64,000 bases of DNA from Geosiphon pyriformis uo1 (taxonomy: Eukaryota > Fungi > Glomeromycota). Below the pieces are notes generated by a model. That model was not told the DNA's origin. It searched no databases and saw only the letters and a program-made list of their open reading frames with translations. Each line of letters begins with the position of its first letter. The first letter of the stretch is position 1. Below, in pieces: positions 3,691-64,000 of this stretch. A program made the position numbers and the translations under genes. Location of the stretch: positions 186,001 to 250,000 of the forward strand of contig JAAOMT010000070.1 of NCBI GenBank assembly GCA_016748015.1. Reading direction: 5' to 3'.

Positions 3691-4728
3691 TGTTACAGAT
3701 AAACTTGGTGGATAATAGAGATGATAACGTTTGGTGCTCTCAATTATTGGTGATGTGTCTTCTGTGTAATTCTGTTGGCTTAGTCTCAATTATCAGTCTC
3801 TGAAGGTTTATTTCTGGATGTGGATTTACCTGTTGAATTCTTTGATTATAAGGCACAGAGTTCGTCTTTTGTCAATTGCAATGTCTTTCATAAATGTGAG
3901 CTTTCTTCTCTGAGCTAACAAGCACAGTCATTAGGGTCTGGTAGTGTCTTTTCGCCCTTCTGGTAAGCTAACAAGATAATGTTAATATCCAAAACTTAGA
4001 GGAAGCCTCCTTTTTTTACCAGGCTATCACGAAGTCTATTTCCAGACAGTCAATTTTACTATGTTGCCACTTCACAAAAGAAAATAAGAAAGAAAAAAAA
4101 AGAATAAATTAGTATCATCAATCACCATAATTAAGAGCAATTGGTCCAAATTGTTAATGATCCAAGGTGGTTATGCTAAGAGCATCTGTCCTAAAACAAA
4201 GATACGAAACAATGGTTTATTCACATAAATCTCATATAGTTTGAGAACATGAATTCATGATTCTGATTTCTTTAATAATTGATTTATTTCAGAAGATGAA
4301 TATGGAAATATAATAACTGAGGAGAAGTGATGGATATTTGTTTTTTGTCTAGTGGTTTGTATCTATCTGTCCTTTTTTCTACTTTCTATTACTACTCACT
4401 TTTATACATTCTTTTGGTTTTACAGGATTGCTTCTGATTGTTTTATTATTACTAACTATTGATTTGTTATTTCTGTTATTGCTTCATTCTTCTATATTAT
4501 TATTAGTTATCCTATGTTATAACATATTATCTAGTGTTATTCTGTGTTATCTCATATTGTAACACATTATCTTGTGCTATCCTAAATTATAACACATTAT
4601 TCAACGTTATTGCATGCTATCCTAAGTTATAACATGTTATTCAACATTATTGTATGCTATTCTGTGTTATGTCACATTCTGGTCACGTTTCTTTATAACT
4701 TTGGATCAATTTTTCTACTCAGGTAACA
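3691..4728 (-). repeat. 3' LTR of element C
   Basis: TGTTAC...GTAACA; aligns end to end with 14155-15191; tandem array at ~4500-4680. Confidence 0.95.
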
Positions 4729-4742
4729 TTATCTCTCTTTTT

Positions 4743-5540
4743 TTAGAATTGAGCTCCTGTGAAATTGTATGTATCTGTTCCTATGTCTTCATTTGTGTAA
4801 TATTCAATTGTTGTATTGAGTATTGTTTTTCGTAAGTCTTCAAACTGTTAATTGGTAATTTGTCTTATGTTGTTAACTGTTATTGTCTTTATAGATCCAT
4901 ACAGCAGTACGTTTAGACAATGTTGGAAAGTGACATATAGTTAGTATGCTGTTTTGTAATATAAAATCAGATTGCTTCTTCCTATGAATTTTTCTACTTG
5001 TTGCATTGCTTCTTTGTTGAAAGCTTTCTGGCTGAGATCTCCATATAGTGTTTTCAAATCTAATTGTTCACCAATTTTGTAGAACCAATATGTTGGAGGC
5101 AGTTTTTTTTTCTATTTCTGGGCATTGTCAGGTGTCCACTTCCCTGTTTCAGGGAGTTCAGTCCCACAAGTTAAAGCTTCTTTTATTTTTTCTAGCTCGG
5201 GGACCAAGTATCTTCTTTTATAAAATAATTCTCATTTCTTCACACTTTCTTCAAGCTCTGCCTAAGATGAATTAATTCTTTTTTGTAAAATTCCTTTCTC
5301 AGGTGAAGTGTAGGAATGAGAATGGTTAGTTCTAATTGAACTTTCATCCATCTTTTTCTTCTTCTTATCTCTATATCTTATTTCTTTTCTATCAATTAAA
5401 ATTTCTATTTGAGATGTTGATTTTTGAATTGTTTCAAATAATTGTTTAGATAATTTTAAAATTTGATCTGAAAGGTCCATGTTGAAATTTCTATTGTTTC
5501 TTGCTGCTTTTTGGATGCTATATATATTTGAATTCTCCAC
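4743..5540 (-). pseudogene. Accessory ORF3 of element C (unknown function)
   Basis: Homologous to 54432-55091 and 16389-17047: MDLSDQILKLSKQLFETIQ, YWFYKIGEQLDLKTLY, QQVEKFIGRSNL, C-terminal NFTGAQF*; stops and frameshift present. Confidence 0.75.
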
Positions 5541-16360: not shown

Positions 16361-16388
16361 TTGAACAATAAAAAGAATATATAAAGAC

Positions 16389-17047
16389 ATAATAGACATG
16401 ACAAAAAACTCTAGAAAAATGAAAATCACTGATAATATTTACTCACTAGCACAACAATTCTTCCAACTGATTCAACAACAGAATATGAAAATTACCATTA
16501 ATCAAAAAACCATTTGATACCAAGATACCAGAAAGAGACCCAAATACAAAAGTCAAAAAAAAACAGAAAACACTATCAACAAAATGATTTTAAAAATAAA
16601 AATAGCAATAGAAGAACTAATAAGTGTCATCATATATTAAGAGTTAACCAAAAAGACTTGTAAATAGTGGATACACAAATTTCCAAGGAACTTTTGTTAT
16701 TTCCACTTGGAACAATACTTGAACATTCAAAACTTATACATAGATAAAACAAAATAATTATTCAACACAACAATATTGCAACAACTAGAACAATTTGTGG
16801 GAAAGAACAACATGACTACATAGGCAAGAGTCATATATTAGCTATATACAAGATTTCAAAACAGACCAAAAATCTTACTTAATTCAGAAATAGACTCTAT
16901 TATAGTTAACTAAATGAGAAAAATAACCAACATCCAATTTGAAGAATTACAGAACAAGATAACTCAAGTAATTCTCAAAAAAAAGTTCAAGAAATACTCA
17001 AAGATGAAGAATTAGAATTGGAAGATCTCAATAGAGCTCAATATTAA
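16389..17047 (+). pseudogene. Accessory ORF3 of element B
   Basis: MKITDNIYSLAQQFFQLIQ...FHLEQYLNIQNLY...QQLEQFVGKNNM...RAQY*; homologous to 54432-55091. Confidence 0.8.
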
Positions 17048-28900: not shown

Positions 28901-29063
28901 TATATATTATTATACAAAAAAAAATTTCTTTCTTTCCTTCATCCCAAATTTCTAAAAAAAAGTCATAAGTTTTTTGAAAAGAAGTTTTTTTACAATTCAG
29001 TACAATAAATCCAAACCGTTTCTACTTGATTACAAGGCCATTGTTGGTTCCAGTATTGCTGTA

Positions 29064-36960: not shown

Positions 36961-37986
36961 AAAAATTATTCTAGCCACAGTTATTCTGTGTAGTTTCGAT
37001 TGAAAGGTTTTTTCAATGATTCAAAAACTCTTAGACTTGGAAAATTTTCCCCGAATTGACTTGATGTGATTGGGTGATGCTGTTTAACAGCAAATTCTCT
37101 ACAGAAAATAATAAATATTAAGTAAATAATACTAGGAAAGTTAACTAATTTCTTGAAAGATCTACCTACATAACAGAACTTTTGATTTTTTGTCTTTGGG
37201 TTCTCGCAATTAGTGACGCACTTGTCACGCAAAATGTGACATTTAGTAAGAGTTAACTGTGATGAATTGAATTTAAAAAAAAAACCCCCTCATCCTCCTC
37301 CATTTTGAGTAAATTATTCACACTAAAAGTATAATGAGAAGCTCAAAGAATTTGGAATTGTGACAGGCTTCACCATAAATTCATGCATTTTTAGTAATTT
37401 TCCCAACAGAATATTCTTGGAAAGAATTTTCTGTTCAACACTTAGAAGTTGTGAGTACTTATATATATATTTCTACAATGGTACAAAGTTGAGAAATTTG
37501 GTAGAAATAACACTGCTTCTTTTTTGTTTATTTTGCGTGTGACAAGACACCAAGCGACAAATTAGAAATAAACCATAGATACATTGGCTCCAATCTGATT
37601 AATGTTAACAGTGTGCAAGCAATAATCTTATTATGCTGCTGCATCATCACTCGTACCTTGATGCTGATAAGTGTTAAGAGCAATGTGGAATCCCAAACAA
37701 ATAATATCGATATATCATCCCTTATAATAACAAAAACTGATAGTAAAAGTTTTCTGAGACATTTCGGCTCTTTCTCATCAAACCCCCCCCCCCTCCACCC
37801 CACCCCCCTCCAAAAAAACTAATTTTTCTTGTAAGACTCGAGTAATAAGCTTGGAACTTACAAAAAACTATTAGAAATCTTGGCAGTTTAACATTTCCTT
37901 TTAGACGAATCCAGAACACAGTTCCCCTTTCCATTTTTTCTAAAATACGTTTCACCTGGCTCCTTGGCACAATTCACTTCAAAATA

Positions 37987-39210
37987 ATGAAGCCTTGTCG
38001 CTTCGTTATTGTTTTCTGGGCGTTCCTATCTCTAACTGCCTTATCGATAGTATGTCCACAGCCAATTTCAATTGGTTTACCTAGTCGCAGCTCCTCTTTG
38101 ACAACAAACTTTCCAAGGCAATTATTCAAACGAGAGATTGAAGAAAAAAATACTCTTTCACCAAATCATAGCAAGACCGCAGATCTTTACACTACACCCG
38201 ATAAGACTTTAACACACGTAAACGCAGAAACCTCACATATAAATTCAACATTAAATCACCCAAACAGTGAAGCCCATAAAAATAGTCAATATCAAGTGGA
38301 AAATACAAATAATTCGATCTATGAAACCGGAGTAGATAAAAAAAATAATACAATTTTTCTAAGCACTCAGGAAGAAATAGAAGCCCTTGAAAAGGAAACT
38401 TCTACGATTCATAAAGTTATAGTAATCTTATGCTCATTGGGAGGGGGGCTTCTTTTGGTGGCTATAGCTATAGCAATTCTTTACTGGAAGGTTCGTCGCC
38501 AACAAAAGATTGTAACCCAAGTGCAATACAATCAAAATCACGATGAGGACGCCACACCTTTATCAAAAGTTTCCGAAAATAATAGTAGCACTGACAGTCG
38601 TGGAGTTAGTATTGGAAATGTCACATCAAATGATGGAGAAAGTGATTTCACACCAATTTCCCAAGAAAAAATGGTCACCAGAGTTCATCATAATTATATA
38701 TTTCCTAATTCACCAATTTCTACTATTCAAATTGAAAGTCTTACGTCACAAACCACTGCTCCCTCAGCTCCACCTGCTGATAAAGTTGAAGCTTTGAATC
38801 ATGAAGTTCAAGTATCATTTCCTATTGAATACTCATTTCCACCCTCCCTTTCATCTCCCCCAGCTTATACACCAACGGCACCACCTCTCTATTCACTCCC
38901 TCATCTACCTATAACTCAAGATTATGTTGATTCTTCTATGCAAGAAATAATACTGAATACTGAAGGCAACTATCTGCCTTCAGTTTCTCCTACATTTCCA
39001 TGTTCAGCTGTTTTACGGATGTCTTCAGTGCCACTACCTGCTCATGTACCATCACTTCGAACAAACCTAATCAGACAAATGTCAAAAACTAAAGATGACG
39101 TAAGTTTTGGACGGTCATTTAATTCACAACCTAATTCCCCGATAGACAACCTAGAATTTCCAGCTTCTAGACGAACACGACATCAACGGCATAATTCTTG
39201 TGAGATATGA
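37987..39210 (+). CDS. Intact intronless 407-aa type I membrane protein: signal peptide, Ser/Thr/Asn-rich ectodomain, single TM, Pro/Ser-rich tail with PY motifs
   Basis: AAAATAATG start context; N-terminal hydrophobic FVIVFWAFLSLTALSIV; dibasic KR; TM VIVILCSLGGGLLLVAIAIAILYW followed by KVRR; PPAY and PPLY; no stops; CpG retained. Confidence 0.85.
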   Translation: MKPCRFVIVFWAFLSLTALSIVCPQPISIGLPSRSSSLTTNFPRQLFKREIEEKNTLSPNHSKTADLYTTPDKTLTHVNAETSHINSTLNHPNSEAHKNSQYQVENTNNSIYETGVDKKNNTIFLSTQEEIEALEKETSTIHKVIVILCSLGGGLLLVAIAIAILYWKVRRQQKIVTQVQYNQNHDEDATPLSKVSENNSSTDSRGVSIGNVTSNDGESDFTPISQEKMVTRVHHNYIFPNSPISTIQIESLTSQTTAPSAPPADKVEALNHEVQVSFPIEYSFPPSLSSPPAYTPTAPPLYSLPHLPITQDYVDSSMQEIILNTEGNYLPSVSPTFPCSAVLRMSSVPLPAHVPSLRTNLIRQMSKTKDDVSFGRSFNSQPNSPIDNLEFPASRRTRHQRHNSCEI

Positions 39211-39240
39211 AAAATATTCGTCTAATTCCTCAAATTCAGG

Positions 39241-39288
39241 ACTACTATTATTATTATTGTTATTATTATTACTATTATTACTATCATA
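39241..39288. repeat. (TAT/TAC)n microsatellite in the putative 3' UTR
   Basis: actactattattattattgttattattattactattattactatcataat. Confidence 0.85.
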
Positions 39289-42200
39289 ATTCTCTCCTCC
39301 AGAAAGTCCTGAACCCTACATTTTTAATCTTAATTGACACTCAATTTTTTTATTGCCTGTTTGTTTTTTCACAAAATTCCCACTCGACGGTTAAAAAACT
39401 GAAAAGACTTTTCAAGTTTTCAAAAGATAATTTTTTTTATCATTTGAAATTTGTCATTGGTGAACCTGACTATATATACTCCTTTAAGAGCATTAGCTTC
39501 GGCACTCTTCTAACTACACGTTTAGGAACTTACTTCAAAAAACACCAACCCATTTTTTTGATCAAATACCACAAAAAAAGGACATTCGACCTATCACCTA
39601 AAAGTTTAATATCTGTGAAATAAAAGGACAACTAAGATTGGTGATGACGCAGGAGGATGATTAATCTAATAGTTGGCAAGGAACAAAAACAGGCTGACTT
39701 GCTGCGTCTGATGAAAAATTCATAGACAATCCTGAAAGGCAAAATCAAAATTGAGAAATAGAAGGTGTTGAAGGATTGCCCGCTGCGAAGTTGACAAGTT
39801 TCAACATATAGAGATGGATGAGGTAGCTTGCTGTTTGGACAAAAAATTTATTACCGGATTCCCATTCGGCATAAGCGCTCAATTTTCTTCACACAAAACA
39901 TTTTAAGGGACAGCAACCACGCTTTGTAGATATATAAAAATATATATATAATTTTTTTAATGAAGTTTCAACCATTCAAACTGATTATTATTGGTTCGTC
40001 TGGTTGTTCACATTTGTTTTAATAATGATGGTGGAGACAACCTTATCTCAATTTGGGATTCCTGAAAGATAGCTTTTCTTACCATTTTGATTTTCGAATT
40101 GGCTTCCAATTAAGATATGGAATGTTCCCACCATTCTTGCTCCGTATTATTTCTTTTTCACTTTGCACCTTTAAAAAAAAATTAAAATTCCATCCTTGTA
40201 GTTTTCTTTGTAAATAGATTAATTTTAAAAATTCTGATGCTGTTTAATAAAACGCTCCTTTCAATCATTGCTTAATGTAACTGTTTTCATAAACGTTTAT
40301 ATTTAGACAAATTTTGATTCTTGAGAGTTAATTTTCTCCAAAAATCCCTTTCTACTCCATAATCATAATTCTTGCATCATACCAATACCTTTTACTCATC
40401 ATGTATTAAGATAGTTAAGAATCGATATTATATTCGCTTGCCAATTGTCATTCGATAAAGCTAACATTGAAAGTCTATAATTTCCAAATTTAATTTTCTG
40501 TGGCTTGAAGGCAGGGGCTTCATTTAATTCCAACTGGATTCTGAAAAATCCGAATTTTCCACGTGACAAACCCAGACAGTGAACATGTCAAATTCGGGGA
40601 TTCAAAATATATTTCAACCTTTGTTTTAAACGAAATATAGGTAACACACATGCAATAAAAATTAACATTAACCGGAAAAGCAGCCTACTTTTTCTTAATT
40701 ATACGTTGGAATTTCAGAATGTCAGGTGTTTGACGAAAGAATTGAGTTCTCTTTAGATTTATCTTTTAAATGTAGTTTATAATATCCTTCATGATTTTTT
40801 GAAAATTGATTCAATATGCTTTTGTATTAAAATGTTTGCATTATATTGTATTAATCTTTTTTTGTTGTTGTTGTTGTTACTATCTTTATTATTATTACTT
40901 TTTGCCAACCATTTTTTTTCACAATTGCTGTCTTTGATTAATATAATTTAAATTATAAAATTTACCTTTTACTGTTATTACTGTTTTAATTATTATTTTA
41001 ATCGAAAAAATTCAAAAAAATAAATTATAAACAGTATTTACTTTTTTCTTTTGTTATTATTGTTATCATTATTTTGCTATTATTTTGATTTAAAATTAAA
41101 AAGTTAGTAGTTTTTAATTACATATATATTTTTTTTTGTATTAAATTTTTAATAAAAAATTGATATATAATTAAATACTTTATGTTATTAGTTAAACCAA
41201 ATTTATTATTAACAATTAACTTTTTATTACAATTAGCTTTTAATTTAGAATTTAAGATGATTGGGCTAGAATGAATTTGGTTTATTGTGAGAAGTGTGGG
41301 CATTTTGGGTATTCAGCTCTTGAATGTGATACTTCAGACATGTTTATACTGCTGTCATCCAAAAAATCATATAAAAAGATTGCTTCAGAGGAAGTTTGCT
41401 TTTGGCTTGTTAAGTTATATAAGAAAAAAAATGTTCTGATCTCTTGTTCTACTGCCTTTGGTGGCAAATCTTGAACCCAAGTGGTTTCACTTGCTGATTT
41501 TTCTGGTGGTACTCATTTTGGGTCTGGTTCTAGTTCTCCTCCTTTTGGTGTTTCAAGTTTAGGTGGTACTTTTCCTTCTATTTTTACTGATACCTCTTTT
41601 TTAAGTAATTGTTTGGCTTTCTTGGAATGTTTCTTGGAACTTTTAACTGATCAAGTTTCTGGTATTATGCACAAGCTCAACAATTTTAAATTGATGTCTC
41701 AAGCTTCTCTTTTTTTTTTCTTAGTTTTGAATACTCCAATGACTGCTAATTTGGATCTGAATTTGACAATGATTTTGGATGGCCCTAACTTAATGTCTCC
41801 ACTTCTTTCTTTTATTGTTTTTGATGTTTCGGTTTTTGGTCTAAGTAGTTCAAAAGTGCCAACTACCAAGATAGGTTTTTTGAAATCTAAGCTGGTGGCT
41901 TTCAATGTCTCTGTTGGCTCAGTGTTGGTAAAATTAGATCAGTTGTGTACTGGATTGGGCTTTTAAGTATCTTTACTCTCCTAATGAATAGTTTAATATA
42001 AAAAGTTGCTACATGCAATGTTTGTAGCATTAATGTGCCGGCTAAGCAAAAAAATATTGTGTGTTGGCACATGAAATCTGGTAATATGATTTCTATAATC
42101 ACAGAAATGAAATTGAGATTTAGTATTAGGCCTTGGATTATAAACAAGTTTAATAGTATGTAGATGTTTATGTTTGGTTTGAATAAAGGTTTTCTTGGTG

Positions 42201-45200
42201 CTGGAGTGGTGATTATCATAAACAATTCCTTGGCTCGACATGTTTTCAAGATTAAGAAGATGTCTGGTTATGTCATTTCTGTTTGGCTTCTTTTCAGAAG
42301 CAAGCTTTTGGTCACAATTTTAGGCTTGTATGCTGGTGCCTCTGTTGAAACCAGGTTTGGTCAAGCAATTGAAGTTAATTTTTTTATTGCAAGGGCAGTT
42401 AATACCAGTACTTTCATGGTCTTGAATGGGAATTTTAATGAGAATAGTTCTAAGAAAAATGCAAGCTTTCAATTCTGTTTAGATTTGGGTTTGGTCAATA
42501 TACTTGGAGATTATCATTTGGCCAAGGCTTCCATATAGAGCAATTTGAAGGGGGTCGAAAAGGTTATTGATTACATTTTTGTTAGTGAGTGTCTGTTGTT
42601 AACAATTGCTGGTTATGAAGTTGCCTCTACTTCTGATTTTTTTAATACTAATCACAAGACTGTCATGGTGTATTTCTGTCAAGTTTTCTTCTGTGTTTAA
42701 TGGGTTCTTATTCGTAAATGTTAATGGAAATCTTGAGAATATGTAGAATTTGCTAGAGAGAGTGATGATAGATTCGGCTAATAAGATTTTCTCTAAACAT
42801 TGGTTTCGCAATGTTAATTGTTTTTTCAACAAACATTTTTCTAAGTTTTTTAAACTGGAACTGCTGATTGTCAAAGTGGTTAAGTTTCTTCAATCTGGTA
42901 ACTTTTTTAGGACTGCTTTACTGCTTGATACTTGGTTAATTGCTGATAAAGTTAGAGCTTTTGAAGTTTAGGACATATTAGATAATGACACCAGCAGAGT
43001 AAACACTTTTAATTGCTTGTCCAGGATTAGGAAAAGTTACTGTTGTTCCAAAATGCATGAGTCTAAAACTGTTCAATCTGTTGCTATTAGATGTGCTATT
43101 AATAAAAAGATGGAAAATTTTTGTTCAGATAAAGACTGTAAGATCAAAAGTATTTTAAATAAGCCATTTCATAAAGTAATCCTTGACTATTTAATTGTTA
43201 ATGATAAGTTGGTGTTGGACTCTGATAAGGTTAAATCCAAGGTAGATACTATAATAGAGGGATGGACCAGAAAACGTTTAGTTTCTGGGTCTTTGTTTGA
43301 TCTTTGGATTTATTAATATGCCCCTTTGTATTATGTAGATGACAATGCCTTTTCTAGTGTCATAGATGCTATTAGTTTCAGTGAGCTGAATCAAGTTGTC
43401 AAATATTTACCAAATAGAAAGGCTGCTGGTCTTAGTGGTATTCCTAATGAATTGTGGAAACATTGTGATAATAATGTTCTCAGGAGTTTTTTTGATCTTT
43501 TGAATTTGTGTTTAAGATTGGAGGCTGTTTCTTTTTTGTAAAAGAGAGTGTGAGTTTTTATGATACCAAAGCTTTATGAATAGAATGGTGTCTTGACAAA
43601 TACTCATCTTATTGCATTAATTGAAACTGCTTGTAAGATTTTTTCTAAAATTCTTTCAAATTGGATTTTTTTTGTTTACAGTAAGTTCAACATTCTCCAT
43701 GAGAATAATTTCTCAGTTTTGAAGAGTACTTCAATGCAGTCTCCTGTTTTTGCAGTCAGTTTGGTGGTCAAAAATGCTTTGGAAAAAGACAGAGAGGTTT
43801 GGTTGGTTTTGTAGAATATGCACAAGACATATGATTTAGTTGGGTGGTATCACTTGAGAACTAGTTTGTGGCATATCAAAATGTGTGAGAGGTTCATTGA
43901 ATTTTTTGGTAGAATTTACAAGAATAGATTGAACAGAGTTATGCCAGATTTTGGCCTTTTAGATAGGTATTAAGTTTTTGATGGCCTCAATTAGAGTGAA
44001 GTGTTTTCTCCTCTTCTTTGGCATATTTTTTATGACCCCTTTTTGTGTAAAATCAAAAGACAAAAAAGTGTATGTGATTACAAGATTGATACCAAGTTTG
44101 TGGCCAAGATGGACAGAATTGATAACATGAGTGGGATGATCTTCTTTTTTGCAACTGGAGCTTTTGTGGATAATACTATCTGAATTGGAAATAGCCAATC
44201 TGCTATTCAGTTTATATTGAACATTGCCAGTAAGTTTTTCTTGATAAATAATATTTCAATTAACAATGACAAAATAGTTGCTATTTCTATCAATAAAAAA
44301 ATAAAAGATGCTGCTTTCAAGATTAGTGGGTTCCCTATTTCGATTGCCAAGTGTGATATACTTTACAGGTACTTGGATATTTTTTTGTCCACAAATGATC
44401 TGTCTAAACCCAGTTTGGCTAAAACTTAGTCTGATGTTAAATTTTTTTTCAATATGGTGTTAAGAAAAATAATTTCGGATAAGCAGTTTTTGTATTTGGT
44501 CTTGACAGTTCTGTAGCCCATTGTTGGCTATTGTATCCAGTTTAGTTTTATACTTTTTACTGTTTGCTGGTATTGGAATGCTTTGGTTAGGAAAGGTTTT
44601 AAGTCAAAAACTGGGCTGCTATGTGATTTTCCATGCAAAATACTATATTATTTAGTGTTATATGGTCTAAAAACATTTAAACAGATTCAGGCTGAAGGAA
44701 AGTCAGCATCAGTTGTCAGTTTTACTAATGCTTCTAAGATTCTTGGTCAGCTTTTTAAGCACAGATTTCTGGATTTGCAAGTTTTGAGCTGGGCTTCTCT
44801 GAACTTTTTGCAATATTCTGTACAGTTATGTGTTAGTCCTTTAAACAATTTTTTGGCTGGAATTGTGTGTGTTTTTTTAGACAATAGTATTTCTATGACT
44901 AATTATTTGCCTTGTGCTTTTTGTTGTCCAAACAGGTTTCCTGTTTTGAAAGTTTTGGGGCCATTATTGTATTATGATCATGTTAGTTCCTTGAAGAGCT
45001 TTGGTGTGGCTTTCTGTGACCAATTTTTAAATAAATGTGATAAGGTTCTGGATTGAAAGATGTTTCGATGTTGAAAGAAATTGGACCGTAGGAGTTCTGT
45101 GTCCTCTTGGTTTGTTTTGGTGTCAAATTTTTTACATAATAATGTGTTCATGTCTATGCCTTCTGATGGAGATTCTATGTTGGATGTTGGTAATATGTTG

Positions 45201-45816
45201 TTGTTTGATCAGTTTTCTGATATTAAGAGTGGCTTGCTTAAAATCTGGTCAAATATTTTTACTATATATATAAATGGTTCTTTAAAAAGACTTGGTTTTG
45301 TTGATGTGGCTGGGGGTGCTGCTGTGTTTTTTTCTGAGATTGATATGGGCATTGGAATTCGGGTTTTTGGGCATTTGTTTTCTATAATAACTGAATTACA
45401 GGCTGTTGCTTTGGCTTTAGAATGCGTGTTCTCTTTTTGTTCAGTGGTGGTGTATTTGGACAGTTATGCTGCTTTGAATGTATGTGTTTCAGAATTGAGG
45501 TTACCTCGTTCTGATTTTTGCAGTTGTTGTTAGATGTAGAGGAAACATATTGTAAATTTGATTGCTAATAAAGACATTCTGTGGTTTGATCAAAAATCAA
45601 AGGCCATTCAGAAGTTCTAGGTAATGTTTGTACAGATGCTTTGGCAGGGGGAGCTGCTCACTTTTTCTTGCTGTTGTCAACTAATGTGTGTAAGCGCTTT
45701 ATTGTGGCTAATAGACTGCCAGTTTCTGATAATGTTTGTCATTTTGTTTAGAATGTTTTTAGATTGGTGAATTGAATACATTGGGAAATTGGTCCCAGTT
45801 TTAGAGTTTTGGGTGG

Positions 45817-46653
45817 TGTTACTTATAGAAATATAGGAAATATATTAGCATGATTATTAGCCAATTAGAAGTAGGCATAGTAAAGGTGGAATTCCAGAAT
45901 TTCTCTCAGGAATTGCAGGATTCCAGGAATTTCAGGATTCCCCAATGAGGAATTACAGAATTCCAAAATTCCAGGATTCTTCTCAAAGGAATTGCAGGAT
46001 TTCAGGAATTCCAGAATTCCTGTCGTGAAGAATCGAGGAATTGAAGAATTTTAATTATGTATATATAGCAATAGTGTTAGAAACAGAAAAGACAGAATTG
46101 ATACCACAGAATTCTTAGTTTAGAAACAAAATCATCAAATAAATAATTATTTCATATCTCAATTTGCTTTCCACTATCAACACTTTATGTTGATAGTAAT
46201 TAATACATAACTACACTGAAACAATAGCTCTTGATCACAGCTATTGACGGAATATTAAATCTGCAAATTGCCTTGGCTTATTTCTTTAGATTTCTTTATT
46301 TTTCTTTATTTTCTGTGATTTTGTTATCGTGCACTAACCAATTGATTAAAAGCGCTGATTACTAATGTCAAGGATTGTCTGGTAAAAGACCTCTGCGAGA
46401 GGGTAGGCCATGTACAGAAGATACGAAATACTTATCAGAGGATTGCTGGCCACCAAGCCAAGAAAAAAATTGACAGACTTGCGAGTCTGGGAAGCTATGG
46501 ATAAAACCATTATTGAATCTCTGTTCATTATACAAAAGACTCCATCAAAACCTTCAGATACAACCCTTTCAGAACATCATCAACAAAAATAGCTTTTGAG
46601 CACCAAGTTACAGGTTTTATTTAATCCAACCAAAGAAATATTCACCTGTAACA
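45817..46653 (+). repeat. 5' LTR of element E
   Basis: Paired with 55106-55919; GAATTCCAG/GGATTCCAG ~9-bp array; TATA ATGTATATATAGC at ~46057. Confidence 0.97.
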
Positions 46654-46671
46654 TTTGGTGCTCCCTGTAAG
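46654..46671 (+). promoter_or_regulatory. Primer-binding site (complementary to a tRNA 3' end ...GGGAGCACCA; tRNA unassigned)
   Basis: TT-TGGTGCTCCCTGTAAG immediately after the LTR CA; same TGGTGCT core in elements A and C. Confidence 0.85.
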
Positions 46672-48760
46672 ATATAATTCTACAGAAAACCAGCACCAAC
46701 GACACCAAACCAAAAGTGGCAGAATCAGAAAATATAGGAGCAAACCATTTAGAATTCACGAAATTCTTGTTTCAACAATACAGCCAATAATTAGGATTGA
46801 ACAGTAATCATTACCCAGCCGAATCAGCCTTCAACTTTTACGTCAACGACAAAATTACTGAATGCTTAGGAGGAACAGGTAACATTAAAGCAGCAAGAGA
46901 AAACTTTTACACAGAATTATTTCAACACATCAACTTACCAAGGAACTATAGTTTTACACCAATAATCAAAAAAATCAACCAAACTATTGAAAGGTACACT
47001 AAACAACAATTTCCCATTACCTATGCAGACAAAGGTAAAGGAAGAATACAAACACCAGCAGCAACACCAAAAGGAATACAGTTACTTAGTTGGAAGAAAC
47101 ACAGAGTAGAATCACTAACCGCTCTATCATATCACTACACACCTGGAAGCACCATTAACATCTCATCAGCAGACACGTCCACCTCAAACACAACATCAAC
47201 ATTTGGAAGATTTTAGTTCCAAAGCAAACAATAGAAGGAAGACTTACTAGGACCATATAGAGTGTATTTTGAAGAATTTAAATCATGATTACCAACTTCA
47301 TCAGGAATTCGATCACTGCCATCTCAACCAGACTTTGAAACCATTACCCCGTAGAAACTATCTGAAGAAGAAGAGAAAGAAGAATCGGAAAGTCAAGAAT
47401 TTATTTATCAAAACCCAATCACTGAAAACCCAGAAGTTGAAACTCTAAATCTTCAAGCTCAGCAAAATCTAAATCTAGAAAATTCGGAAATCGAAACTCC
47501 GAATTATCAAAAGCAGAACAATTCAAATTCCGAATTAATTAATCAGCAAAACTTATCTCCGGTAATTGTCATTGATCAACCACTGATTAATTCCATAGCC
47601 AAACTCATACAACAGCCATTTCAACTACCACCCCAACAACCAGTACAACAACAACTGCTTCAACAGCCACCACAACCACCTAACTTAGATCCAATGGCCT
47701 ATGCACCAATTGCAAAACTTGACAACTTTACTGGCAAAAAGGATGACACTCAAGTATGGCTGAATAATATAGAAAAGGCCATCGCAGCCAACGAATGGAA
47801 TGACGCTCAAGCAATGCAAGCCATTCCCTACTTTCTCAAGGATACCACCGATTCATGGTATCAGAGCTTGGTTAATAAACCACAAGATTTCAATGCCTTC
47901 AAAGCAGAATTTCTAAGATACTTCAGCAATAATAACAGCATCAATCGCCTAGTCAATACATTCACCACCATAAAACAGGGAGAAACTGAAGCAGTTACCA
48001 CTTACCTGGAATGCTTCCATCAAAACCTGCGCCAAATTCAAGCAATTGATGCCAACTATTTTACAGCACCACAGATACTCAATCAGTTTATCCGTGGCCT
48101 GTACAGCAGCATTTTACAACATGTATATCTGTTGCATCCTAGCACCCTTCAAGACACAGTTACATGCACCAGAGATTTTGAATTCACTGAGTTAGAGACC
48201 AACCACGCCCAAGCCATTAACCTAGTAATAAATGGATCATCTGAATTGGATTCCAAATTGGAAAAGTTCAGTGAATCAATTAATAAGAAATTAGAAAGAT
48301 ACTTAGCTGACAATCACACCATTTATTAGCCTCCACAACAACACAATAATCAAAGGAATTCTAATCGTAGCCAAAATCAATCACATCTATCATCTTCAAC
48401 AGCACCTAGTCTAACATGGCAGCCAGAAATGCATGTCTGCCACAACTGTGGTAAACAAGGCCATATTCAAGTTAATTGCCATACTTATAACAATCAACGA
48501 TCAGAAAATCAATACAAAAACCCTGATTACCAGTTCCAAACTCCAAATTGTTATCCAAATCACAATCAAAACCAATATCAAAATACTTACCTGCCAATAA
48601 TGCAGCAACCAATCTACTAACTGCCAGTATATCAAACCCCAGTTTATCAACTGCAGCCACTGGCAATTTATCAATAGCAGTTCCCAATAATTTATCAGCT
48701 GCAGCCCCAAATAATTTATTAGTCTCAACCATCAATTCAAACACCACTCCAAAACTTAGC
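46672..48760 (+). pseudogene. gag of element E (N-terminal extension, capsid 47694-48329, CCHC ~48438-48480)
   Basis: MAYAPIAKLDNF...QILNQFIRGL; CHNCGKQGHIQVNC; same frame as downstream pol. Confidence 0.92.
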
Positions 48761-49490: not shown

Positions 49491-49829
49491 TTCAAGGTTC
49501 CTTCAAAAGAGGAACTATTGATAGAGCTGGAGGAAAAAAAAAAGCCTATCTGGGAAGCTTTTCAAGTCTCCTGGGCCGATGCTGATCACAATGAACTACC
49601 ACCCATACTCTCATGGAATGACAAGAGAAAGAAGAAAGAAGAAGAACTTACTTAGAAACCAAACCTAGGAGCATGGGGTAAGAATAAACTAAGCAAATTA
49701 ACTGCCAAGTGGACCTGGGAACAAAAGAGAAAAGGGAAAGAAAAAGAAAACGACCAACCACCAAGCACCAATTCAACTCATATCCCATACTCTATGCCAC
49801 CACAAACAGAATACCGTTAACCCAAACTA

Positions 49830-50470
49830 GTATGCATCAGTTGTGGTAAAAAATTGTCAACAATGAGCACATGCTGTAGTAAGGACAAAGAATAGACAAC
49901 AGCAACTGAATACTACTGTCACCCATGTGTTTTTGAATGCAATGGATGACTGCCAAAAATAGGAAAATGGGACGGTACTTTGTGTCTAGCCTGTGAAGAC
50001 ACTCTTTTGGATAAAGGAATGTGGAAAAACATTCCTGGAAGAGGGGGAGCATGCGACAAAACATGCCAATACACAATTCTGATCAACGACTGGGTACGAA
50101 AGGGAATTCCAATCGACAACACCTGGAAGCGAGCATTAAGACGCCTGGAAGGATACCCACATGACAAAAATGAGATCTGGAGAATGGCATATGCTATGTC
50201 TGAAGGCGCTACAACAGAGGAGCTGAGAAAAATTAAGGACAACCCACTATTACTGTCAGAACCAGAATATGTCCAAATGTTTGATGTTTTTGGCAATGTT
50301 GAGGAGAACCCAGAAGAATTTTACGAACACTACCAGTGACTAGCACCCACAAGAGAAAAACAAGAAAAATGTTTAGCACAGCTAAATACTTGATTATGTG
50401 ACTACTGTTTGATTTCATGTGACTTCCAATATTGTAATAAGTGTGACCTCATTTACAATCCACCACCATG
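49830..50470 (+). pseudogene. Cys-rich (multi-CxxC) domain between protease and dUTPase, element E
   Basis: CISCGKK, YYCHPC, CLACED, GACDKTCQY, LCDYCLISCDFQYCNKC. Confidence 0.8.
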
Positions 50471-50744
50471 CATGATCTACATGATCCTCGAAGAAGAAGA
50501 ACTAATCAGCAGCTGCACATCAGAATTGGAATCACCATTCAATTCCAATTCAAACTCTGACAATGACAATAACGAGAATAACGGTTCCAGCTCTGTTCAA
50601 AATAGCAATAACAATGATAACAATATTAACTCAGATTTAAACTCCAACTCAAACTATGAACAATATATTGCACTTCCTGACCTCACCAAGGAACAAAAAC
50701 TAAAATAGTTCAGCGATAATAATGAAGGTATTTTGCTAGAATGT

Positions 50745-51130
50745 GCATACAATACTGATGCAGAATTTGATCTGAGATATTTAGAAAAAGATACCATCAA
50801 ATTGGAACCACATTCACGCACCTACATTGATCTGAAAGTAGCTTTAGAAATTCCAGCAACAACAATGATTCAACTAGCATCTAGAAGTAGTTTAGTGAAA
50901 AGAGGGATAAACATCAGAGGAGGAATAATTGATGCAGGATACATAGGAAATATTATTGCTATGCTACAAAATGACTCTGAAAAGGCCTATATCATAGAGC
51001 CAAACAAAAAGATAGCACAGACAATATTCCTGCCTCTGGTTAGAGTAACTCAGTTAGTATTAGTGGAAAAGAGGGAGAAATTAGGAATAACAGCAAAAGG
51101 AATACAGAGATTCGGATCAACGGGTAGAAT
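50745..51130 (+). pseudogene. dut: dUTPase domain of element E
   Basis: DAEFDL, LASRSSL, GGIIDAGYIGNI, KIAQTIF, KGIQRFGSTG (motifs 1-5). Confidence 0.92.
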
Positions 51131-51589
51131 AGATGTACCAGTTAATATGGCAGAGGAAAAAATTGTTGGGCAAGGAGAAATTATCTCAGCCGGTCAAGCT
51201 ATTTCCATTCCACCATACAACCAGTACATGCTAGCAATAGAAAAGAAGGAAAAAGACCAAGCACAAATTTTTGAAGCAGAAGCCAGTCTTTGTGAATTAG
51301 GAGAAGTTGGACTCATCAATCTCCACATACCAGTCAAAGATTACAGCCACATCAAAATTCCCATCTACAACAACACAGGAAATGTCATAGTAATACCAGC
51401 CAGAATCATCATTGAATACTTAAACACTGAAATAAAGGATTAACCACCAAACTTCATTCCAGACTTTCCACAACTTTGTGGATATGTCAATATCACATCA
51501 CAAACAATATAAGATGAAGTGAATGTTATTTGCTCTAACCAGAACAATTGAAACAAATGAACATGGAAAACTTAGATTCACTCTAACGT

Positions 51590-52945
51590 ATGCAACTCAA
51601 AATGTTGCTCAACCAATTCAATGACATCTTTGTCAGCAAAAATGAGTTTGGCCGAACTGACATCATCCAGCATCAGATCAAGACTGGAAATGCAATGCCA
51701 ATTAAACAAAGAGCATACAGAGTGCCACCAGCCAGCCATGAGATTATTTGTCAAGAGATAAACCGAATGCTTAACAATAGGCTAATTCAGTCATCAATGA
51801 GCCCATGGTTGTTACCAGTGGTATTCGTCTGTAAGAAAAATGGAAAAATCCAATTTTGTGTAGACTACAGAAAACTCAATAGTGTAACTCATGGAGACAG
51901 TTATCCAACTCCATGAATACAGAAATTATTCAATGCTTTCGGTGGGAACAAATGATTCTCAACATTAGATTTGGACAGTGGTTACTGGCAAGTAGCTATG
52001 AATCCAGCCGACAAAGAAAAGATGGCATTCACTACGAGAGAAGAGAATTTTGAATTTGAAGTGATGCCATTTGGCTTAACCAATGCCCCAGCAACTTTCC
52101 AACAGCTAATAGAAATTGTTTATACTAGCTTATTGTGAAAATCAGTAGTTGTATACTTGAACAACACCAATGTATTTTCAAAGATGTTTAATGATCATCT
52201 TCATCATCTTCAACAAGTGTTCGAAAGACTAAAAAGAGCAGGACTAAAGTTAAATGCAACAAAGTACTTCTTTGGCAAGACAGAACTAAAATTCTTAGGA
52301 CACATAGTCAGCAAAGATGGCATCAAAATGAATTCGGAGAAAATAGAGATAGTAAAGAACTTTCCAGTGCTGACCAATATGACAGAACTGAGATCATTCT
52401 TAGAATTCGCCAGTTACTATTGACATTTTATCAAGAACTTCTCCAAGATACTGCAGCCACTCAACCAACTGCAAAACAAAAATACAAAATATGAATGGAC
52501 AGAAAATCAACAAGAAGCTTTTGATATTCTGAAAAAAAAACTCATCCAAGCTCTAGTACTGATCTATCCAGATCACAGCAAATCATTCATCATCACCACA
52601 GATGCATCCAGCCAAGCATTAGGAGCAGTACTATCACAGAAAAAACCAGACGGCAGAGAACATCCAGTAGCGTATGCCAGCAGAGGTTTAACATCAGCCG
52701 AAAAGAACTATGGAACACTGGAACAAAAACACTTAGCAATATACTGGGCAGTCATGAAATGGAAAGAATACTTGAGCCAGAAGTTTAAAGTATACACAGA
52801 TTACAAAGGATTAACATCACTTCAAAAACAAGAATTTGGAGATAGAAGACAGTCAAGATGGAAAATGGCACTCGCATCATATAATTATACTATACATTTT
52901 AAAAAAAGAAAAGACAACAGAAATGTGAACAGTTTATTGTGAATG
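51590..52945 (+). pseudogene. RT and RNase H of element E
   Basis: [38 protein letters not shown] (decayed YLDD), TTDASS, VAYASR, YTDYK. Confidence 0.95.
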
Positions 52946-53229: not shown

Positions 53230-54400
53230 TCAACATGTACTTAAATCCAACAGCAGAATACTTTTACAAAGAAACAACCATGGAAAGAACCAGAAAGAGA
53301 TACTATTGGCCATCAATATACCCAGACATTATTTAATATGTTCAAAATTGTGATGCTTGTCAGTGAAAAGGAGAAACAAGATTCAGTGAACCATTAAGAC
53401 CAATCAAAGTGAGACAACTATTTGACTATATTGGAATTGATTTAGTTGGACCATTAACAATCACCAGCAGAGGAAACAGATACATAGCAGTAGCTATGGA
53501 CTATCTCACTAAATGGCCAGAGGCGAAAGCAATTCAAAGAGCGGATGCAGAATCTGTTGCCAAATTTGTTCATCAGGATTTGATTTGTCAACATGAATGT
53601 CCAAAAAAATTATTATCAGACCAAGGAACTCATTTTGTGAACAAAACATTAACAGAATTGAGCCAAAAATTCGGAATCAAGAGACCATTATCATCACTAT
53701 ACCATCCACAAACCAACGGATTAGTGGAAAGATTTAACAGAACATTGTGTGAAGCAATAGCTAAGCTCAGTCAAGAAAACCAGAACGATTGGGATTTGTT
53801 CATACCATCAGTACTATTTGCTTATTAGACAATAAAACAAAATACTACACAAGCAACACCATTTGAATTAGTGTATGAGAGAACAGCAACATTACCAATA
53901 GAGAGAGAAATTAATACATATCCAACTGAACCAATAACAGAAGAAAATTTTCAAGAGACATTGCTGAAAAGAACATATGACTTAATAGAAACATTGGAAA
54001 ACAAACAAAGAAAAGCAGCTGATAATATTCAAAAGTCACAAGAAAAACAGAAAGAAAAACATGATAGTCAACTACCAGACAAATCAGTTGAATTCAAGAT
54101 TGGAGACAAAGTATTACTATATTGTACCAAAGCAGAAAAACAATAGAGTGGAAAATTTGACCCCAAATGGGACGGACCATTTCACATAGAAGAAATTCTA
54201 AGAAATAAAGCTTACAAATTAAGATTGGATAACAAATTTTTAACCAAAGCAGCACATGGAGATTGACTGAAACCATATTACAACATCATACTACCATCTA
54301 CCAGTAATATTCCACAATTAGGAGTACAGAGAATACTAGTCCAACCAAATGAAATTCCACAAGATCTGGAACCAATCGTTATTATTGACAACAACATGTT
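53230..54400 (+). pseudogene. Integrase of element E
   Basis: YYWP, CDACQ, GIDLVGPL, DYLTKWPEA, SDQGTHF, HPQTNGLVERFNRTL, WDGPF; no chromodomain seen. Confidence 0.95.
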
Positions 54401-54431
54401 AAATTAATCCATCAAAAGAATATATAAAAAC

Positions 54432-55091
54432 ATGGTAGATGTGACAGGAAATATCAGAAAAATGGAAATTACAGACAACATTCACTCACTAGCACAACAA
54501 CTTTTTCAATTAATCCAACACCAGGAAATGGAGATTACAATCAATCAACAAACTATTCGATATCAAGATATTAGAAAGACATTGCAACTTAGAACACAGA
54601 AGAAAACTGAAAATACTGTGGACAAAATTATTGCAAAAGTAAAATTAGCAATAAAAGAGTCAACAAAAGAGTCACTATATCAAGAGTTAACTAAAGAAAC
54701 TTGGAATTGGTGGATACAACAATTTCCACAAAACTATTGTTATTTTTACTTGGGACAACACGTAAATATTCAAAATCTATATATGGATAAAACAAAGCGA
54801 TTATTCGACAAAAGAATACTACAACAATTAGAACATTTTGTGGGAAAGAACAACTTATCCACACAGGCCTAAGTCATATACCAAATACACACAGCATTTT
54901 AGGATAGACCAGAAATATTGTTCAACAAAGCAATAGATATGGTTACCAGTAATCAATTGGGAAAAATCACCAATGCTCAATTTGAAAAATTACAAACCCA
55001 AATAACACAAATAATTCTTGAAAACAAAATCCAGTAAATACTTCAAGAGGGGGAATTAAAGGAGTTGGATTTCGATGGAGCTCAATATTAA
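54432..55091 (+). pseudogene. Accessory ORF3 of element E, ~219 codons, stop overlapping the PPT
   Basis: Single frame with only point-mutation stops, ending DFDGAQY*; homologs in elements B and C. Confidence 0.82.
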
Positions 55092-55105
55092 AAAAGAGGG
55101 AATAA

Positions 55106-55919
55106 TGTTACTCATAGAAATATAAAAAATATATTAGCATGATTATTAGCCAATCAGAAGTAGACATAGTAAAGGTAGAATTCCAGGATTCTTCTTAGAA
55201 ATTGCAGTATTCCAGGAATTTCAGGATTCCCTGATGAGGAATTGCAGGATTTCAGAATTCCAGGATTCCAGGAATTCCAGGATTCCTGTCATGAAGAATT
55301 GAGGAATTGAGGAATTTCAATTATGTATATATAGCAGTAGTGTTAGAAACAGAAAAGACAGAATCGATACCACAGAATCCTTAGTCTAAAAACAAAATCA
55401 TCAAATAAATAATTATTTCATATCTCAATTCGCTCTCCACTATCAACACTTCATGTTGATAGTAATTGATACATAACCACACTGGAACAATAGCTCTTAA
55501 TCACAGCTATTGACGGGATACTAAATCTGCAAATCACCTTGACTTATTTCTTTAAATTTCTTTATTTTTCTTTATTTTCTGTGATTTTGTTATTATGTAC
55601 TAACCAATTGATTAAAAACACTGATTACTGATGTCAAGGATTGTCTGGTAAAAGACCTCTGCAAGAGGGTAGGCCATGTACAGAAGATATGGAATACTTA
55701 CTAGAGAATTGTTGGCCACCAAGCCGAAAAAAGAATTGACAGACTTGTGAGTCTGGGAAGCTACAGATAAAACCATTATTGAATCTCTGTCCATTATACA
55801 AAAAACTCCATCAAAACCTTTAGATACAACCCTTCCAGAACATCATCAACAGAAATAGCTTTTGAGCACCAAGTTACAGGTTTTATTTAATCCAACCAAA
55901 GAAATATTCACCTGTAACA
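55106..55919 (+). repeat. 3' LTR of element E
   Basis: Paired with 45817-46653; preceded by PPT AAAAAAGAGGGAATAA. Confidence 0.97.
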
Positions 55920-60857: not shown

Positions 60858-63800
60858 TTTTTATTAAAGCTTAATGAGTAAAGTCCAACTGCTATCTAGT
60901 ATATAAAGCCAGACTAAGTGGTCCAAACTAAATACAACTTATGCATTTACTACATGTGGCTAGCCACTCAGACCAAACAAAGCAACATTACACATCTATA
61001 TGAACACAAACATCACCACCCAAACCAGAATAAAAAAAACAAGGTCTTTGATGGCCAAAACTAACAGCAAAAGACTCAACAATACTAAGCATCCTAATCA
61101 CATCATCTAAAAAAATATATACTAAACTACAAGACAAATCTGACACAACACCCCCATCTCCAACCAAACCAGTCTTTTCTATATCGACTCTGAACTTAAA
61201 TCTCACCAGCCAAGCTTTGGAATGATGCAGTTCTACCAAGTATCTTGTAAAATTAATGACTGCAAAGGTGGCTTTCTTTTTACATTCAAAAATTCCAATG
61301 GCCTTAGCCAACCAATTCTTAAGCACAAACTCTTTGCACACAACAACATAAGTCTTAGAGTCCAACAAACAAAAAGAGAGTGTCCTCAAAATGACAGAAA
61401 ATAAAGACTATCTAAAAGCACCTGCTAAAGCAGCCCAATGTGTAGAGGCTTCTGCCAAAATCTTATCACAAATACCAGTATCTTGACCACAAGTAAAAAC
61501 ATGATTTGGCAATTCTACTTTACTGCACAACAAGCACAGCATACTAGGATATTCTTTATCATATAATCTTTTTCTAACAACCATAGGCAATTATTTATGA
61601 ACTGCTTTCATTAAATATATGCAAAGATTGGATAACTTTCAACTTGTAAAACCAGCAAGTAAATGTGAGTCTGAATGCCAAATTTTTGCAGTAAAGTCCC
61701 AATTAATTTCCATAATAAGTAAACTGGGAACCATGTTACGACCAAGACCAACCTCCCATTGAGCACAACAAACAGACTGGAAAATATCTCTGACAAAATG
61801 ATAAGCATTGCCGAAAACAGCAGTATTCTCAGCCATCAAAAAATGCTTATGCACACCCATTGGCAAATAATAAAGAGAACCAGCAGCCACACCCACAGCA
61901 GCATCCACCCTAATGTTACCATAAATTTCAGAATGACTCTTGACCTTGACCCAACTAACTGTAAGATCCTTGTCCTTAATTAAATTATAAATATTTCTTT
62001 TCTCAATCCAACATTGATTGTAGAAATCAGATACTGCCAATGCCACCTCCAACACATATGCATCAATAGCTGTTTGACTGTTGAGGTATACAATCAAGAA
62101 ACAAGAAGATGGCACACATTCCAGAGACAAAGTGACAGCCTGCAATTCAGCCATAGTAAAAAAGGCAAAGCCATGCACTCCTACATTAATGCTCATGTCT
62201 AATGCCAGAAAATATGCCACAGTATCACTAACCACATCATCAGGCCCAGTATTCCTCAATGAACCATCTGAATAAACTTCAAACAAGCCAGACCAAATTT
62301 TATGTAAACTATCTTGCACCTTGGCAAACTCATTAGAATTCAGAATGTTCAAACCATCAGCCTGAAGAGACACAGACAGAACCAATGGTGAAAAGCTATT
62401 ACTGTACAGAAACCTTGATGTAACATCAAACCAGTAGGGAACAGAGCCTTTGAAATCCAATCTTTTCCACCAATGGAAGGTTTTCCAATCCATAACACAG
62501 CCCTTTTTATCAAAGAGCTTATCACTAAAAGCAATTTTAAAACATTTCAAAGACTAAACAAAACTAAGATATAAAGTCTTCTCAAGAATAGAAAACATAA
62601 GAAAAACACCAGAACTATGAAAAGCATTAGGCAACTCATTTGCCAATAACAGCTTATTAGCTAAAAAAATCCTAACCACTTTAGCTAAAAAATTGTTTAC
62701 AGGACTAAAAAGCAACTTAACTGAGAACTGCAAGGGATTTAGAGGAGCCCACTCCAAAACCTGCAGATCCAAGAATCTATGATGAAACAACCAACCAAGG
62801 ATGCCAGAAGCATTGGAGAATGAGACCACAGCAGTTAATTTATTCTCTGATTGCACTTGCTCAAAGGACTTCAGACTATAGAGCAAAAAATGGTGTAAAG
62901 CCTCATTAGGGAAATTTCAGGACAAGTGTGTTTTAGACTTGAGGCCCTTTTTAATCATGACATTCCACTTGTTGTACATACTTGATAAGACAAAACTAAA
63001 TTGAGTTTTATAACTAACAATAGGCTGCAAAACAGCTAACATCAAATAGGAAAACTGCTTGTCTATAATAGTCTTTCTAAGCACCACATTTACAAAGAAA
63101 TAAACATCAGCATAAGCCCTAACCAAATTCAGCTTGAAAAGTCTCTCAGTTGACAAAAAAATTCCCAGATATTTGTAAGTCTTGCCCTTTCCAGCCATGG
63201 AAATAGGTTGGCCATTAATACTTAAAGCAGCAAACTTAACACCTTGATTGATTGGAATGATCACTGTCTTCTCATTATTGATGGAAATGTCATTGATCGA
63301 AAAGAATTCACTGGCAATGTTCAGAGCATATTGCATAGAAGCTTAACAATCCTGACCCAAATTGTGTTATTCACAAATGCACCAGCTGCAAAAAATGAAG
63401 ATAAACCACTACTATTCTCAACTCTGCCAGTTTTTGCCACAAATTTAGTATCAATCTAATAACTGCACAAATGCTTATGTCTCTTAACTTTACACAAGAG
63501 AGGATCATAAAAGATTCTCTAAAGAAGGGGGGAGAAAACTTTATCCTGGTCCAATCTATCATGCACTCTATAGCCTTTTGAAAGGCCAAAATCTGTCATA
63601 ACTCTATTGATCCTATCTGTGTGTATGCTACCAAAAAATTTAATAAACCTATTGCATATCTTGATCCTATTTAAACTAGCCTCCAAGTAATGTCAACCAA
63701 CCGAGTCATATGCTTTGTGCATATCTTGCAAGATTAGCCAAAGTTCCCAACTCTTTTCCAATGTGTCTTCTACCACTGAACCAACTGCAAACACAGGAAA

Positions 63801-64000
63801 TTGAGTAGACATACTCTTCAAAACCAAAAAATTATCATCTTTAAAAACACCAAATTTATTGCATGCAGACGAAATCCTGTTGGAAATAACTTTGGAAAGA
63901 ATCTTTCTGGTGGTTTCAATTAAAGCAATAGGTTAAGTATTTATAAGAACTTCATTCCAGTCATAAGGTTTTGGAATCATTGAAACCCAAGCCTTTTTCC
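60858..64000 (-). mobile_element. Decayed LINE, 3' half (RT, RNase H, CCHC, 3' UTR); continues past the window end
   Basis: WVSMIPKPYDW, DMHKAYDSVG, AGAFVNNT, YKYLG, VYSDGS, MAELQAV, KVKSHS, CLLCSKVELPNHVFTC; 3' UTR shared with the other LINEs. Confidence 0.93.

Follow-up and report, generated by a model that had tools for sequence, protein, structure and literature searches.

A Conserved Accessory Reading Frame between Integrase and the 3′ LTR of Ty3/Gypsy Elements in Geosiphon pyriformis

Ty3/Gypsy retrotransposons of Geosiphon pyriformis carry, between integrase and the 3′ LTR, an extra open reading frame (ORF3) that is real and under selection; its protein family is undescribed, whereas a gene at this position is of a known kind. 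We studied three such elements, E, B, and C, in a window of 64,000 nucleotides (i.e., the whole stretch of DNA that was analyzed, to which all positions refer). Sequence comparison indicates that ORF3 is an accessory gene inherited together with pol in this lineage. Our best reading of its function, which we rate at little short of an even chance, is that of a DNA-binding helix-turn-helix (HTH) trans-regulator of its own LTR, expressed from an internal promoter. Little characterization exists of the accessory genes that fungal LTR retrotransposons carry, and the lineage formed by E, B, and C accounts for a high-copy share of the G. pyriformis repeats. LTR sequence makes up 41.2% of this genome according to PMC11952901.

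Structure and Context of the Elements

All three elements belong to the Ty3/Gypsy LTR retrotransposons (Table 1). E has direct LTRs with TG...CA ends, a target duplication, a polypurine tract (PPT), and gag followed by RT-RH-IN. Its LTRs are 89.5% identical, both flanks carry the 4-bp target duplication GTGG, and the gene order is gag, CCHC, Cys-rich domain, dUTPase, RT, RNase H, and integrase. C is inserted on the minus strand within the integrase region of B. Every copy of the three elements is decayed. CpG is depleted across the window (observed/expected 0.28), and 64 of the 65 LTR differences involve transitions.

Table 1. Features of elements E, B, and C in the window.
Element	Feature	Position	Strand	Remarks
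E	5′ LTR	45817..46653	+	TGTTAC...GTAACA ends
E	gag capsid region	47355..48326	+	Retrotrans_gag, Ty3_capsid; CCHC knuckle next
E	Cys-rich domain	49827..50459	+	3′ of protease region; 49% identical to C 9969-9343
E	dUTPase domain	50709..51200	+	Pfam E=1.5e-18
E	Reverse transcriptase + RNase H	51587..52942	+	
E	Integrase	53235..54407	+	H2C2, rve, SH3_Tf2-1; pol stop TAA 54405-54407
E	TATA-like box	54421..54428	+	41 nt before conserved ORF3 start; candidate internal promoter
E	ORF3	54462..55091	+	209 aa from conserved Met; 3 decay stops
E	GGAGCTCAAT motif + PPT	55078..55105	+	ORF3 stop overlaps PPT 5′ edge
E	3′ LTR	55106..55919	+	U3 array ~55178-55320; TATA at 55326
B	TATA-like box	16378..16385	+	41 nt before ORF3 start
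B	ORF3	16419..17047	+	63% aa identical to E ORF3; 7 stops + one frameshift
C	TATA-like box	5519..5526	-	46 nt before ORF3 start
C	ORF3	4743..5480	-	245 aa; frame differs from C pol; 5 stops
C	3′ LTR	3691..4728	-	partner LTR 14155-15191

A preliminary description of this DNA had named the Cys-rich domain, dUTPase, and a gag extension as the set that, together with ORF3, defines the lineage. The dUTPase and the Cys-rich domain, the latter shared by E and C, bear this out, whereas the gag extension of E found no match in C by tblastn (E ≤ 1). The Cys-rich domain (~210 aa; 49827-50459 and 9343-9969) lies between protease and dUTPase, contains several CxxC pairs, and matched no Pfam or NCBIfam entry.

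The primer-binding site (PBS) of E (TTGGTGCTC, 46654-46672) presumably resembles the 3′ end of tRNA-Ile; a tRNA gene search of the window found none. A U5 stretch at 46597-46606 (GAGCACCAA) is complementary to this PBS, as is likewise the case in C, and U5 could thus pair with the PBS in both elements. Between gag and protease, C is split by an AT-rich stretch holding a 487-bp tandem duplication (11110-12107, 97% identical). Three decayed LINE-like elements with a C-terminal RNase H-like domain occupy 28956-35536, 37849-45533, and 60988-64000, with the 5′ LTR of E coming immediately after the second. A search of all three for an ORF3 homologue was negative. A repeat of ~430–450 bp occurs in three copies at 23109-24099, with an inverted 126-bp pair (23371-23496 and 23867-23992, 98% identical).

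The ORF3 Reading Frame

The earlier claim of a separate ORF after integrase in E, B, and C was borne out, with 209–245 aa between integrase and PPT. The stretch at 54432-55091 in E comprises 219 codons with 3 stops, that of C 265 codons with 5 stops, and that of B 192 codons with 7 stops and a frameshift near 16975-16985. In 5 of 5 copies examined, the ORF3 frame has the fewest stops of all six frames. Related contigs in DNA run X1 carry a sense base at the E stops 54870, 54900, and 55035 in 71%, 85%, and 70% of the depth, respectively, which makes these stops minority states, and gene model P0004 is open and collinear with E. The start had been placed at 54432, an upstream in-frame Met of E that is unconserved; the start that the families have in common is the second Met, which lies at 54462 (E), 16419 (B), and 5480 (C).

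All peptide matches quoted among E, B, and C are present in three-frame translation. One of them, GAQY*/GAQF*, is merely how a conserved DNA motif beside the PPT, GGAGCTCAAT, reads when translated, and it is therefore not independent protein evidence. An end of ORF3 exactly at the PPT was found in E, B, C, and one further family, but it is not family-wide: in P0183/P0187, P0204, and locus L001, the same GGAGCTCAAT-PPT-TGTTAC DNA is read in another frame, through the PPT into U3. The exact end and GAQY* reflect a cis element. A GAGCTCAAT-like motif before the PPT is shortly duplicated in B (17023-17043), and P0040 and P0032 show similar expansions, so that this motif is length-variable. Conservation in three elements, as described previously, applies to all three; however, since E and B are close relatives, with C nested in B, the window represents two independent families and not three.

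The ORF3 Family

Sequence searches with ORF3 brought up 107 proteins for the E query and 29 for the C query, all of them hypothetical proteins of G. pyriformis, and 26 longer matching proteins were likewise all from this species. When 1.84 billion representatives were searched with a profile, 120 matches were obtained. The source was checked for 16 of the new matches, giving 14 from G. pyriformis and two metagenomic proteins with intact frames (P0204 and P0210), while the others were placed with Geosiphon families by BLAST likeness only. ORF3 forms at least five families with a mutual identity of 23–45%. In the annotation of the G. pyriformis genome, considerably more than a hundred "hypothetical proteins" can be reassigned to decayed transposon ORF3 copies, and P0204 and P0210 provide natural intact versions.

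Integrase sequence lies upstream of ORF3 in 26 of the 32 gene models holding both. At the DNA level, locus L001 combines a nearly intact RT-RH-IN region, a ~320-nt spacer, an open ORF3, and an LTR-like stretch, and locus L002 an integrase end, a further ORF, and then ORF3; the arrangement is therefore not confined to one assembly. The additional ORF of L002 (L002:425-808; P0250/P0252/P0253, 128–137 aa) matched no known family. As P0252 and P0204 share a contig of 19,119 bases, this family may carry a two-gene cassette.

Outside these families, the closest Atlas clusters to ORF3 are Mucoromycota proteins without names (score 0.94–0.95), which offer a lead to a wider family; an Atlas search with P0004 gave no usable match. 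Scans of viral contigs for ORF3 relatives, a tblastn search of phages, and a profile search of bacterial genomes (5 of 5) were all negative. ORF3 may resemble a motif of Rhizophagus repeat proteins. The unnamed Atlas neighbors make a host or other transposon source of ORF3 plausible, and they would also suit a captured host gene fragment of no benefit to the element. This latter reading has, in our estimation, a nearly negligible probability: ORF3 is retained across families of 23–45% identity under purifying selection (see below), which largely refutes it, and the frame is open in both metagenomic relatives.

Selection and Divergence

The preliminary description had proposed dN/dS as a check on purifying selection. 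For ORF3 of E and B, dN/dS is about 0.18–0.20 (NG86 0.20; second estimate 0.18, bootstrap 0.09–0.30), with 0.16–0.23 for integrase (NG86). Neutral decay between the two LTRs of E yields an apparent dN/dS of 0.38–0.50, and by this measure only the E-B pair therefore counts; NG86 values of 0.33–0.47 for distant ORF3 pairs were dropped as evidence, as neutral transition decay alone produces the former range. Transversions were compared between 0-fold and 4-fold sites. They are depleted at 0-fold sites in E-B (20/328 vs. 5/24, p = 0.02) and in E-C (79/355 vs. 11/22, p = 0.006), the latter pair sharing 27% identity across 226 columns (E=8e-22). No significance was reached for E-L001 (p = 0.37) or L001-L002 (p = 0.059). 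Among the six frames, the test is significant in one, i.e., the coding frame. Together, these results show purifying selection on ORF3. An antisense or alternative-frame gene was considered and rejected, as the ORF3 frame has the fewest stops and the transversion signal is found in the coding frame alone.

Compared pair by pair, ORF3 is less conserved than integrase (63 vs. 77%, 34 vs. 63%, and 27 vs. 58% identity); it evolves faster and is under less constraint. The identity rank order is the same for both proteins, as joint inheritance would predict. Faster divergence in every pair could also point to a protein that counters host defence by contact with the RNAi or methylation machinery, leaving its own DNA unrecognized. 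The CpG depletion and the prevalence of transitions would agree with such a role, and transposon methylation as well as small RNAs are reported for Rhizophagus in bioRxiv 2021.03.30.436303. Nevertheless, we consider this quite unlikely: no known suppressor was matched, an Atlas row for a closterovirus coat protein shares just 149–156 of 256 features, and the tests run revealed purifying selection and no sign of positive selection.

Co-inheritance with integrase is equally compatible with a chromatin- or DNA-binding cofactor for integration targeting or pre-integration steps that substitutes for a missing integrase chromodomain. In E, a decayed copy, Pfam at E ≤ 0.1 detected H2C2, rve, and SH3_Tf2-1 in the integrase and no chromodomain at its C-terminus, and a DNA-binding fold would suit this task. 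We regard it as improbable, as ORF3 is a separate gene and never a pol fusion in 5 of 5 DNA copies.

A Candidate Internal Promoter

A TATA-like box precedes the conserved ORF3 start in E, B, and C (Table 1). Of the 150 ATGs in the internal region of E, a single one has the word TATATA(A/T)A at 25–60 nt upstream, and the same holds for one of the 108 ATGs in the examined 6 kb of C. Both are the ORF3 start; the two counts are not independent, because the junctions are homologous. Local shuffles produce such a box in 0.6–2.8% of cases. The first accessory ATG has a TATA-like word 126 nt upstream in L001 and 111 nt upstream in L002. Taken from these positions, ORF3 likely has its own internal promoter. 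A short subgenomic mRNA would then begin ~30 nt past the TATA-like box and end in the 3′ LTR.

Stop-codon read-through from pol was considered as well. In E and B, ORF3 comes after the pol stop without a change of frame; in C its frame differs from that of pol, and in L001 (across the spacer) and L002 (with the extra ORF between) a long distance separates the two. Read-through is unlikely, since frame and distance relative to pol vary among families.

The ORF3 Protein

The description of ORF3 as a soluble, mostly helical protein that is not a classical Env agrees with our predictions. None of 8 proteins contains a transmembrane (TM) segment or signal-like stretch, with a maximum 19-residue Kyte-Doolittle mean of 0.27–1.29. 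The overall pI of P0204 and P0210 is acidic (5.9 and 5.4), which counts against a DNA-binding regulator; basic patches lie in the linker of ORF3. A non-canonical protein of the envelope, particle, or movement kind, spreading the element between nuclei or hyphae, would match the env position of ORF3 (sense, with pol before it and the 3′ LTR after it) and the coenocytic nature of the host group. The hydropathy of all 8 proteins and the lack of a match to viral structures render it highly improbable.

An initial 16-row alignment gave a fold with a pLDDT of just 50.8, for which PDB returned no match. With 46 aligned rows, AlphaFold2 reached a mean pLDDT of 76.5 (~90 over residues 80–200) and predicted a small N-terminal module of helix plus hairpin at low confidence, then a linker and, at high confidence, a six-helix C-terminal domain (80–200). 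Prediction of a P0210 homodimer scored 0.01, which speaks neither for nor against a dimer. ORF3 matched nothing significantly in Pfam, NCBIfam, or PHROGs, a PDB sequence search gave importin-5 only (E 1.1), and Foldseek of the model against PDB and viral libraries found nothing at E ≤ 0.001. The earlier note had set Foldseek and identity with a known ORF as checks, and neither revealed a described protein.

Below the significance mark of each tool, however, several signals lead to HTH domains. In a VIA comparison with 48,161 chains, the best Z was 4.7, to unrelated chains (typical chance bests are 7–8), and a second look with the ORF3 model gave no clear match. ParB-type DNA-binding domains provided 3 of the top 50 rows, aligned across the whole C-terminal domain. 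Spo0J (Z 4.1, rmsd 4.9, 92 aligned), KorB (Z 3.4, rmsd 5.2, 97 aligned), and ParB 6s6h (Z 3.3, rmsd 3.1, 59 aligned) were all sub-threshold. DUF1016_N, which was picked for testing after a weak Pfam match had been seen, aligned to ORF3 by hhalign over 57 columns at a sub-threshold probability of 11.5 (pairwise E 0.0026), which 1 of 200 block shuffles matched. The swapped direction gave a probability of 4, and a narrower DUF1016 set gave a score of 15.8, less than the best of 60 shuffles (18.7). Direct hhalign comparisons with HTH_ParB (0.08), DUF3102 (0.77), and Raf1 (0.15) were negative, while DUF1016_N and HTH_ParB are linked to each other at a probability of 87–89. Across 46 ORF3 members, Pfam reported DUF1016_N in 2 (best E 0.016), and Glypican and GA in 4 each. 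When the ORF3 profile was ranked against 1036 bacterial ORFs, DUF1016/DUF3102 proteins took 5 of the top 6 places (best 12.4 bits vs. 1.5 for the reversed profile) and 16 of the top 30 (vs. 11 with the reversed profile), a ranking that is suggestive of a link. Within the putative recognition helix, N...RLY..F is kept, and the first half varies by family. Overall, we consider it somewhat more likely than not that the C-terminal domain is homologous to the ParB/DUF1016-type HTH group.

The main rival to a DNA-binding regulator is an RNA-level regulator like Rev or CERV of Cer1, which binds the genomic RNA and aids the export, stability, or translation of that RNA. ORF3 is soluble, appears to be separately expressed, and has basic linker patches, helical domains can bind RNA, and CERV sets a precedent in an LTR retrotransposon (PMC10309623). 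On the other hand, Pfam, NCBIfam, and PHROGs contain no RNA-binding family matching ORF3, the TATA-like box favors an internal promoter over splicing, and the weak fold links go to DNA-binding domains. We therefore judge it unlikely.

U3 Arrays and Proposed Mechanism

A DNA-binding regulator of the LTR could find its target in U3. E and B contain 8-bp GAATTCCA-like units, C has 18 phased 10-bp units (~4670-4491), and L001 TCTTAAY units. At positions 5–6, the C units vary between CG, CA, TG, and TA, as decayed CpG would. The E-type motif was counted 6, 6, and 3 times in the E 5′, E 3′, and B LTRs and 0 times in C, the C-type motif 13 times in each C LTR and 0–1 times elsewhere, and a third type 7 times in L001; the patterns were drawn from the same LTRs as counted and cover three families. 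U3 repeats are common in elements lacking ORF3. By analogy, family-specific arrays would fit a protein co-evolving with its sites as in VANC, and fast LTR turnover alone could yield the same picture.

As a trans-regulator, ORF3 would use its C-terminal domain as a distant ParB/DUF1016-type HTH, with helix 146–160 (P0210 numbering) reading DNA. It might bind the repeated U3 motifs and raise LTR transcription or shield the LTR from CpG methylation, and protein and array would diverge jointly between families. A bolder version has a fungal Ty3/Gypsy lineage that turned into a complex retroelement, captured a ParB/DUF1016-type HTH, gave it an internal promoter, and uses it for family-specific binding of CpG-bearing U3 arrays, thereby overriding host methylation and helping LTR elements to fill ~40% of the Geosiphon genome; taken as a whole, this is conceivable but doubtful. 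Among the functions suggested originally, a transactivator gains some support from the weak HTH resemblance, the TATA-like box, and the U3 arrays, and our analysis found none for a silencing suppressor or a movement factor.

Comparison with Known Systems

Elements with a further reading frame after pol and before the 3′ LTR are known, as is a dUTPase in fungal Gypsy elements, and the proposal of an undescribed system stands for the protein, which matches no described family, and not for its setting. For fungal Gypsy elements, a dUTPase between PR and RT is covered by PMC2864245, where a figure legend points out a further ORF whose function is unknown. Our literature search found no description of ORF3; G. 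pyriformis genome papers, supplements, Repbase, or GyDB may already contain the element. Additional ORFs between pol and 3′ LTR, as presented in PMC7264820 and PMC11963269, include env-like sense ORFs, antisense ORFs in Grande, RIRE2, and Retand (TRP28), and fungal Boty, with TRP28 proposed as a DNA-binding regulator. ORF3 shares with the plant ORFs its conserved location, yet it is in sense without a TM segment and has no Pfam match to their domains. In bdelloid rotifers, LTR elements of dUTPase lineages carry ORF3s encoding a GDSL esterase, a DEDDy exonuclease, or fusion glycoproteins (PMC5408684). Common to both is a non-env ORF3 in LTR elements with a dUTPase; Geosiphon ORF3 gave no Pfam match to the GDSL and DEDDy enzyme families and no significant match to a rotifer-type fusion glycoprotein.

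With ParB, KorB, DUF1016_N, and DUF3102, ORF3 shares a six-helix layout (predicted for ORF3, all scores being sub-threshold) and, in register, aromatic-x-IG-x-x-L ... G-x-(S/T/N) ... (R)LY-x-x-F. Unlike that group, it has no ParB CTPase or nuclease domain attached. VANC of the Arabidopsis VANDAL transposons is an anti-silencing protein acting on tandem arrays of family-specific short motifs, with binding and demethylation shown in PMC5735166. The likeness lies in a transposon-encoded accessory protein and family-specific tandem motif arrays in non-coding DNA. VANC is an unrelated protein of a plant DNA transposon, whereas cognate binding and demethylation are only proposed for ORF3.

In foamy viruses, Tas/Bel1 is a small DNA-binding trans-activator encoded beside the 3′ LTR, transcribed from an internal TATA promoter, and acting on U3, and accessory frames can extend into the LTR. 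We found no sequence or fold link between ORF3 and Tas/Bel1, and foamy viruses are animal retroviruses with env, whereas the function of ORF3 is only inferred. The two resemble each other in a gene beside the 3′ LTR, a candidate internal promoter, and frames running into the LTR. Should ORF3 be a DNA-binding regulator that targets its own element, it would constitute a fungal parallel to foamy virus Tas and plant VANC, and a testable way for a retrotransposon to escape CpG silencing.
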